Below, one piece after another: positions 15,825 to 15,960 of a stretch of 64,000 bases of DNA. Below the pieces are notes generated by a model. The model made no database searches, had not been told where the DNA came from, and saw only the letters and a list, made by a program, of their open reading frames with translations. The translations under genes were made by a program, and so were the position numbers. Source of the stretch: a phage; the sequence record PZ091942.1. The stretch is one strand, 5' to 3'. Each line of letters opens with the position of its first letter. Position 1 is the first letter of the stretch.

Positions 15825-15960
15825 CTTATAGCCCTTGTGCTTATCAGAGGGCTATGTGAGGATGTTCCTCAATTAACTATAATCTCAATGCCATATGGCT
15901 CACCGCTAGGGAGAGACTTGTCTCAAACATCCGGTGATAGACTAAAACCTGTTTAATTTT
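15825..15960 (+). repeat. conserved intergenic hairpin element, copy A
   Basis: TAGCCCT-12nt-AGGGCTA hairpin plus conserved blocks GCTAGGGAGAG and AACATCCG; second copy at 21003-21140. Confidence 0.6.

Follow-up and report, generated by a model that had tools for sequence, protein, structure and literature searches.

What does a phage gain from keeping the same structured intergenic sequence twice in one early-gene cluster? The starting point was a preliminary description of record PZ091942.1, which had claimed a duplicated element of ~135 nt behind two unrelated genes. The window analysed here is a 64,000-nt stretch of this phage DNA. The region around the element is a + strand early-gene cluster with many small ORFs and a single tRNA-Arg gene at 17927. 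The six-kb stretch around the element is 96% identical to Escherichia phage ECBP2, and ~100 phiEco32-like podophages match it (Gordonclarkvirinae: Kuravirus, Suseptimavirus).

To locate the copies, the covariance model R1 was run over the whole 64-kb window with filters off. It matched exactly two loci, copy A at 15815-15947 (+ strand, 132.1 bits) and copy B at 20993-21138 (+ strand, 127.5 bits), with E ~1e-28, and the runner-up scored 10.6 bits. An nhmmer profile found the same two copies (E=5e-32 and 2.5e-40), and MAFFT gave 77% column identity between them over ~190 nt, confirming the claimed duplication at both places. In a repeat search, the 34-nt hairpin block at 15827-15860 and 21005-21038 was 94% identical (family D9). 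The related fragments reported at 18880-18900 turned out not to be a copy (R1 7.5 bits, E ~10), and a third copy at 18.8-18.9 kb was ruled out on these values. The intergenic region there (18831-19106, 275 nt) has at least five hairpins and is not an element copy; one of them, AAGGAUUCU-UACG-AGAGUCCUU, resembles the copy-B terminator stem without its U-tract.

Both copies are joined closely to the end of a gene. The upstream ORFs stop at the TAA inside GTAACATC (15816-15818 for copy A, 20998-21000 for copy B). The start had been placed 3-8 nt past the stop codon, and this needed adjusting: the TAA in GTAACATC is itself the stop, and it is the P1 hairpin that begins 8 nt (A) and 4 nt (B) past it. 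The element starts at most 13 nt from a stop codon in every lineage. The upstream genes differ and are non-homologous between phages, and the junction is always RRTAAC. The genes flanking the two copies belong to different PHROG families, as the claim of non-homologous neighbours had it. With varied upstream genes at the same junction, indels that do not keep to triplets and sense-strand covariation, the idea of a portable non-coding structured module was upheld, and from the earlier interpretation the third fragment near 18.9 kb was dropped. Of the roles suggested there (small RNA, processing or stability element, protein-binding site), none was singled out by the computations, and they are weighed below as rivals. 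Absent from that description were the helices past the first hairpin, the invariant DnaA box and terminator behind copy B, the homologues of 7-11-like and Citrovirus phages and the connection to terminator read-through of early transcripts.

The fold was modelled from 35 distinct copies of different phages and consists of five helices on the sense strand: P1 and P2 are adjacent hairpins, followed by an A/U-rich linker, P3, and P4 around P5. The positions in the two copies are as follows.

15815-15947, + strand: copy A core (A-type), in the order P0/P1/P2-linker-P3-P4-loop-P5, matched by R1; MFE folding gives P1, P3, P4 and P5.
15817-15822 with 15861-15866, + strand: copy A P0, an alternative helix overlapping P2 and the stop codon.
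15827-15836 with 15847-15856, + strand: copy A P1, with a 10-nt loop, from covariation.
15858-15870, + strand: copy A P2, GAGG-AUGUU-CCUC.
15871-15889, + strand: copy A linker J2/3, which contains TATAAT in the phage under study.
15890-15899, + strand: copy A P3, GCC-AUAU-GGC.
15900-15905 with 15932-15937, + strand: copy A P4, closing the loops CUAGGGA and AAACAUC and P5.
15913-15916 with 15921-15924, + strand: copy A P5.
20993-20999 with 21040-21046, + strand: copy B P0, from the fold and pair table.
21005-21014 with 21025-21034, + strand: copy B P1, from the fold and pair table.
21036-21040 with 21046-21050, + strand: copy B P2.
21051-21077, + strand: copy B linker J2/3.
21078-21080 with 21085-21087, + strand: copy B P3.
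21089-21094 with 21123-21128, + strand: copy B P4.
21102-21106 with 21111-21115, + strand: copy B P5.

The preliminary description had proposed a pairwise alignment, which gave the 77% identity, and a covariance analysis. Across the 35 sequences, divergent ones included, 96.3% of pair cells were paired, compared with 33-47% when the partners were slid, and 18 of the 27 pairs showed compensatory changes, counted on an alignment that was fitted to the model itself. In the set of close relatives, standard pairs made up 96.2% (36-50% after sliding by 1-3 columns), with nine compensatory pairs. None of 500 shuffles reached the observed value on any of the five measures, two of which are rarely false-positive on tree-related sequences. 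Single-sequence thermodynamic folding recovered P1, P3, P4 and P5 in every lineage, with z-scores of -2.0 to -3.9. U-G pairs are numerous on the + strand and the reverse strand scores below 20 bits with R1, which indicates that it is the sense strand, as mRNA, that folds.

The conserved blocks listed in the preliminary description proved to be the strands and loops of P2-P5. Its hairpin of 7 bp with a 12-nt loop was P1, for which we found 10 pairs including G-U and a 10-nt loop. P1 (UAUAGCC...GGCUAUG) is a 10-bp hairpin with 98.6% of cells paired and, with divergent homologues included, eight compensatory pairs; in relatives its loop ranges from a UUCG tetraloop to 12 nt (4-12 nt). The lack of a U-tract stood: GUGAG follows in place of a run of U's, P1 does not qualify as an intrinsic terminator, and the terminator scan omits it. 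P1 resembles the terminators at 9480-9513 of the window and at 497-520 of L131 (UAUAAGCCUC..GAGGCUU plus U's; UAAGCCUUCU..AGAGGGCUUA), and it may descend from a terminator hairpin minus its U-tract.

P2, a short hairpin two nt past P1, has a lineage-specific fourth pair, which is G-C in A-type copies (GAGG/CCUC), U-A in Kuravirus B (GAGUU/GACUC) and 7-11 (GAGUUAU/GUAACUC), and C-G in Suseptimavirus B copies (GAGCU/GGCUC). The A/U-rich single-stranded linker J2/3 (10-30 nt) varies in length and sequence and is unpaired in all folds. P3 is a 3-bp hairpin with a four-nt RUAU loop and GCC, GGC or CCC stems; it is 100% paired, and two of its three pairs are compensatory (GC/CG/UA). P4 has 6 bp (variants UCACCG/CGGUGA, CCGAUG/CGUCGG and UUCGGUG/CGCCGAA), is 99.5% paired and shows compensatory changes in four of six pairs. 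It closes an internal loop with GCUAGGG(A/C) on the 5' side and (A/G)AACAUCC on the 3' side, and between them lies P5 (GAG..CUC, 3-5 bp), with 100% of its cells paired. Neither loop, GCUAGGG(A/C) or RAACAUCC, varies among phiEco32-, 7-11- and L176-type copies, and invariant unpaired nucleotides number ~20, which suggests recognition by a macromolecule.

An alternative helix, P0, would compete with P2. In P0, the last codons and stop of the upstream ORF pair with the 5' strand and loop of P2 (A, B, 7-11 and Klyazma versions; variants AACAUC/GAUGUU, AACACC/GGUGUU, CAGAGUA/UAUUCUG, GAAUAAC/GUUAUUU and CUUCC/GGGAG), and in these four versions P0 and P2 are mutually exclusive. The MFE structure of the free RNA has P0, and when the 5' ~21 nt were masked as if by a ribosome, P1 and P2 formed; L176 and CVT22 form P2 regardless of masking. 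As modelled, P0/P2 is therefore a bistable feature that is frequent without being universal, and it may have biological significance.

The element does not code for protein and is not a known RNA. Indels of 4, 6, 7, 8 and 12 nt between the copies are not confined to multiples of three and no + strand ORF runs across the copies, which argues for a non-coding sequence; neither core has a + strand ORF of at least 40 aa. Some GenBank records place short 'hypothetical protein' CDSs over the element, inconsistent in strand and frame, and our finding would flag these annotations as spurious. In Rfam 15, the tRNA-Arg was the sole match in the window, and the cores were unmatched at E<=10 in 8-kb, 256-nt and 321-nt searches. 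STnc100 (21 bits, gathering score 47) and TarB (22 bits, gathering score 80) touched the terminator part only. Known ribozyme, riboswitch and sRNA families were rejected as they gave no Rfam match, and a tRNA or tmRNA remnant was ruled out by ARAGORN and Rfam, which give only the tRNA-Arg at 17927. Resemblances of the element to a K-turn, a tetraloop receptor and a CRISPR repeat (type I-F) are ones that we take to be superficial. The literature searched, from which the original phiEco32 papers were absent, contained no mention of the element. As far as Rfam 15 and the searched papers show, the sequence family and its fold are undescribed; the kind, structured RNA that acts in cis within an early operon of a phage, is already familiar.

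Nearly every phiEco32-like phage has both paralogues (99 and 101 records). Phage EcoN5 (L132) has its B copy doubled in identical form at 6980-7116 and 8498-8634, a tandem duplication of ~1.5 kb with the same small genes after each. Salmonella 7-11-like phages (7-11, SE131, SeKF_80 and pSal-SNUABM-01; Grimontviridae) carry one B-like copy, whose module is 70% identical to that of phiEco32-like phages over 220 nt from stop codon to terminator. The model found no second copy in the 28-kb early region of phage 7-11. In 7-11 (L184), no genes are annotated in a stretch of 710 nt (2335-3045) downstream of the phi32_112 homologue, and the model search of this gap was negative.

A pattern scan of metagenomes and GTDB returned close relatives plus L176. 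Among GTDB species genomes, R1 confirmed two phage-like MAG contigs only (L176, 67.9 bits; L178, 127.8 bits) and did not confirm L177, the third pattern match. L176, a contig of 48.7 kb, was binned with a Flavobacterium MAG, but its DNA is related to Citrovirus phages. Its copy keeps the loops GCUAGGGCGAG and CUCAAACAUCC, and P1, P2 and P4 are fully replaced with pairing kept. At 1978-5668 of the same contig, at least six small ORFs share an acidic end (...EENE / ...DEENE). Copies from Citrovirus (Zobellviridae) are more diverged, with the helix order unchanged and the core loops less conserved: Klebsiella phage Klyazma scored 32 bits (E 7e-6) and Citrobacter phage CVT22 26 bits (E 2e-4), and BLAST matched the intergenic region of Klyazma to VR7901 and Asterion. 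The element was absent from GAP52-like and other contigs (L140-L145, within 10 kb on either side of the COOH-NH2 ligase), from Erwinia phage Pecta and from 5,426 complete E. coli genomes, the last of which speaks against a host or prophage origin. A loose IMG/VR pattern, CTAGGGAG..AACATCC, hit 120 loci that are mostly chance, NJ01 alone being confirmed by nhmmer, and a stricter pattern returned phiEco32-like contigs only.

What follows the core differs between the two copies. Downstream of copy A, the module contains these features.

15972-15995 and 16005-16032, + strand: hairpins H1 and H2, with UAGGGGUA in both loops and compensatory pairs (RNAalifold).
16049-16082, + strand: terminal hairpin with a weak U/A tract, CUUUAUAUU, followed by an RBS and a gene start at 16122.
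16122-16262, + strand: gene for a 46-aa basic protein (MKKTTKRMNRPERMD...), phrog_13305, a PHROG family without known function.

In Kuravirus A modules the terminal hairpin is variable in sequence and has no U-tract. A G-loop hairpin like H1 and H2 also comes after the Klyazma and L176 copies. The hairpins at 15972-15995, 16005-16032 and 16049-16073 display UAGGGGUA or GUAGGGCU, and the core loop is CUAGGGAG; UAGGG occurs unpaired four times within 260 nt (core loop CUAGGGAG, H1, H2 and terminal hairpin). The 46-aa protein gene always comes directly after copy A. The N-terminal half of this protein has homologues in 7-11-like phages, 12 kb from their element and with no copy adjacent, and no homologue was present in the Citrovirus matches.

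This arrangement brings in the possibility that the element is an operator at which a phage or host protein regulates translation or stability of the neighbouring genes, for example a repressor that binds RNA at the GCUAGGG/AACAUCC loop and at the UAGGG(G) loops that recur. Consistent with it are the three or four unpaired UAGGG motifs of the A-type intergenic region, the small basic protein encoded behind every copy A and related to proteins of 7-11-like phages, and the RNAalifold pairing of the P2 3' strand UCCUC with the downstream SD GAGAGA. However, the SD pairing never varies and thus has no covariation support, the 7-11 protein is encoded 12 kb from the element, Citrovirus lacks it and its PHROG has no known function, and the GGGC loop variants lack the GGA required by CsrA. 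We consider an operator unlikely.

Copy B is followed by a different set of features.

21150-21158, + strand: perfect DnaA box TTATCCACA, 10-13 nt past the modelled 3' end of the core.
21158-21175, + strand: small hairpin AGAUAU-UGGGUG-AUAUCU, missing in 7-11-type copies.
21197-21221, + strand: strong intrinsic terminator GGCUCUC-UUAG-GAGAGUCC plus U6.

The terminator has a stem of 7-8 bp and lies 58 nt past the modelled core end of copy B in the window, and the next gene starts at 21242. It is kept in phiEco32-like and 7-11-like phages with compensatory stem changes, and the 7-11 and SU7 records annotate it as such. The order of core, DnaA box and terminator is fixed in the B/7-11 lineage, with the RBS of the next gene after it. 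The perfect box GGTTATCCACA is invariant in every B-type and 7-11-type copy and has no counterpart after A-type, L176 and Citrovirus copies. The 64 kb contain two exact boxes, 21150-21158 (+) and 15779-15787 (-), each at most 30 nt from a copy; the minus-strand one precedes copy A by 28 nt, falls within a phage-specific ORF and is not kept elsewhere.

Such boxes would fit a role at the DNA level, namely a replication origin or DnaA-dependent control region, or a linker for cassette recombination, for which the constant RRTAAC junction behind upstream cassettes that differ between phages would also speak. Against it, the compensatory changes and sense-strand G-U pairs argue for a folded single strand and not for duplex recognition. 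Moreover, A-type, L176 and Citrovirus copies have no DnaA box behind them, conservation does not extend to the box before copy A, replication proteins are encoded by the phage itself, and GC skew does not switch near either copy. We regard a DNA-level role as quite improbable.

The terminator of the B module leads into an operon of amidoligases and a GlmS-like amidotransferase, and an amidoligase cluster of this kind likewise lies downstream of the Citrovirus and L176 copies. A metabolite riboswitch that controls the amidoligase/glutamine-amidotransferase cluster through the terminator would account for this, and covarying helices around invariant unpaired nucleotides are an aptamer-like pattern. 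Yet no Rfam family matched even at E<=10 in the 256-nt search space, the core loops are not conserved in Citrovirus, the genes downstream of copy A are unrelated, and the element is restricted to few phage lineages and missing from the complete E. coli genomes. No overlapping antiterminator was found either, the best being 4-6 non-covarying pairs of AAGAG with CUCUU. We regard a riboswitch as very improbable, slightly more so than a DNA-level role.

To place both copies in their transcriptional context, promoters and terminators of the early region were compared. Sigma70 consensus early promoters lie at 9806-9833 and 10543-10571 and correspond to SU10 early promoters, which are listed in Table S2 of the SU10 report (PMC4281155); in SU10 all genes of the region are classed as early. 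From these promoters it is 5.3-6.0 kb to copy A and 10.4-11.2 kb to copy B, and the distance is ~19 kb in 7-11. A promoter inside or just upstream of the element was considered and rejected: none is conserved, the upstream sequences differ and no sigma70 site was called. The first + strand phage-sigma (gp36-type) promoter is at ~37056, and no convincing sigma70 site was found between 21.2 and 37 kb. As no known promoter lies in this interval, more than 15 kb of early genes past 21221 need read-through of the U6 terminator at 21197-21221.

The same problem is posed by phage 7-11, in which only two early promoters were validated, at the genome end (Lavysh et al. 2022, PMC8948821), and early transcripts are said to span almost half of the genome (PMC8948821). 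In the words of its authors the antitermination strategy of 7-11 'remains to be defined' (PMC8948821). Within 18 kb scanned in 7-11, the terminator directly after the element is the only + strand hairpin with an uninterrupted T6.

Strong terminator-like hairpins were also seen at 12413-12440 and 13702-13930 (+), between the early promoters and copy A and with no element before them. The latter region has four of them in tandem within 230 nt, ahead of a cell-wall-hydrolase-like ORF. Another intergenic module that occurs twice was seen at 13668-13725 and 20004-20060 (73% identity); it starts directly past a stop codon with TAAGCC(C)TCTTCTCT ... CTACTATGACGC, and a terminator-like hairpin follows. 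Because of the hairpins before copy A, the element would not be the sole read-through device, unless a promoter went unrecognised in 14377-14577.

The reading that we put forward, tentatively and as something short of probable, is that the element is a cis-acting RNA which controls read-through of the terminator closing its own intergenic module. The element would sit in a long sigma70-driven early polycistronic transcript of phages that rely entirely on host RNA polymerase. The nascent sense RNA would fold just past the end of a gene cassette, and the folded element would decide whether RNA polymerase passes the hairpin or terminator of the same module. The outcome would be control of terminator read-through or attenuation, analogous to HK022 putL/putR and lambda nutL/nutR with an unrelated fold. 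Translation is a possible input, through P0/P2 as a ribosome-sensing switch: since the P0 5' strand overlaps the upstream stop codon, a terminating ribosome would favour P2 over P0. The analysis itself establishes the sequence family with its five-helix fold, the strand that folds, the fixed order of core, DnaA box and terminator in the B/7-11 lineage and the lack of known promoters for more than 15 kb past that terminator; contact with RNA polymerase or a protein, an effect on termination and the ribosome-sensing switch are inferred.

Besides the covarying fold, its strand, the promoter context, the invariant unpaired nucleotides and the exclusion of P0 by P2, two observations support read-through control, namely that the only copy in 28 kb of 7-11 sits directly before the T6 terminator, and that the two paralogous copies share one direction of transcription as putL and putR do. 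On the other side, the Kuravirus A module ends in a hairpin without a U-tract, the ~19 kb between promoters and element in 7-11 have no parallel in put, to which the element shows no similarity, and the loops of the Citrovirus copies are less conserved. For an antiterminator pairing between core and terminator, or mimicry of the terminator 5' strand by the P2 3' strand, inspection of the sequences gave 4-6 non-covarying pairs at best. A stronger form, in which the element is a new RNA class that acts directly on enterobacterial RNA polymerase and suppresses termination, possibly gated by ribosomes through P0/P2, appears rather unlikely.

The tight conservation of the B module down to its terminator fits a discrete RNA or a 3'UTR equally well. 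The element could thus be an mRNA processing or stability module, or a 3'UTR-derived sRNA, with transcripts that end at the module or are cut within it. In the processing version, RNase E would cut in the A/U linker, P1-P2 would guard the upstream 3' end and P3-P5 the downstream 5' end. In the sRNA version, the B type would yield a ~225-nt stable RNA ending at U6 and acting in trans via the conserved single-stranded GGUUAUCCACA. The start close behind a stop codon in every lineage agrees with this, as do the single-stranded A/U linker between stable hairpins and the B module being conserved as one unit from stop codon to terminator (70% over 220 nt). An Hfq-type sRNA-like 3' part of hairpin, U-rich stretch and U6 terminator, together with a conserved single-stranded seed-like stretch, is complete in B/7-11 modules and not in A, L176 and Citrovirus modules, and of sRNA models only TarB and STnc100 matched, weakly. 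Release by processing would need no promoter. It counts against this reading that no promoter is conserved upstream, where the sequences differ. Simple stability hairpins, moreover, need neither invariant internal loops nor a five-helix fold across three lineages, and A-type and Citrovirus copies are without a good terminator or seed-like stretch. We hold processing or an sRNA to be the main rival, almost as likely as read-through control and likewise short of probable.

phiEco32-like and 7-11-like phages serve as models in the study of phage sigma factors and belong to phage therapy collections. The way in which their very long host-polymerase early transcripts cross internal terminators is a stated open question (PMC8948821), and a well-supported, uncatalogued five-helix RNA right before the key terminator makes it directly testable. 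The element is the best candidate for a device that moves host RNA polymerase past internal terminators in these phages. If it served in processing or as an sRNA instead, it would still add a structured RNA family, new and cleanly supported by covariation, to the few cis-RNAs known from virulent coliphages.

Several known systems share parts of this design. Like the RNase III sites and intercistronic processing hairpins of the T7 early region, the copies are repeated portable structured modules after stop codons among podophage early genes; unlike them, the element has several domains and helices that are too short for RNase III (10-11 bp for P4 and P5 together, around an 8x7 loop). As in riboswitches and leader attenuators, the B lineage has a structured sensor domain with an intrinsic terminator and then an operon behind it, and the mutually exclusive P0/P2, one of which overlaps a stop codon, recalls ribosome-mediated attenuation. 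The differences are that no expression platform overlapping the terminator and no Rfam match was found, and that the element is confined to phages and lies between genes inside an operon, not in a 5' leader.

Lambda nut sites combine boxA with a boxB hairpin bound by the arginine-rich N protein, and work with Nus factors. The element shares with them the presence of two copies in early transcripts, and the gene directly after copy A encodes a small basic protein, much as N comes after nutL. Linkers of the 7-11 and Citrovirus versions (UCUUUUUAAACAAUU, UCUUAUUAACAAU) have what we take to be a resemblance to rrn/lambda boxA, GCUCUUUAACAA. In contrast to nut, there is no boxB-like hairpin with a GNRA-fold pentaloop, the phiEco32 A and B copies are without boxA resemblance, no N homologue was found, and in 7-11 the gene for the small protein lies apart from the element.

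The closest parallel to the proposed function is HK022 put, which modifies RNA polymerase independently of proteins via the beta' zinc-binding domain. It is ~70 nt long, is built of two long stem-loops with a triplex, and is found 0-270 nt from PL/PR (PMC9378689). Homology was rejected in both sequence and structure: over 20.0-33.5 kb of HK022 (immunity/early region), the best R1 hit reached 14 bits (E 0.08) downstream of the replication genes, 3' of the helicase CDS. The present element is ~135 nt with five helices, kilobases from its promoters, and its activity is putative. Both are nevertheless cis-acting, structured, sense-strand RNAs in early operons transcribed by unmodified E. coli-type RNA polymerase, with two paralogous copies per genome and no dedicated protein identified, and both lie upstream of terminators needing read-through (copy B and 7-11; the copy A hairpin is weak and variable). 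If direct action on RNA polymerase were true, the element would be the second RNA-only antiterminator after HK022 put, and it would explain how phiEco32/7-11-type phages transcribe early operons of 25-45 kb through strong intrinsic terminators.
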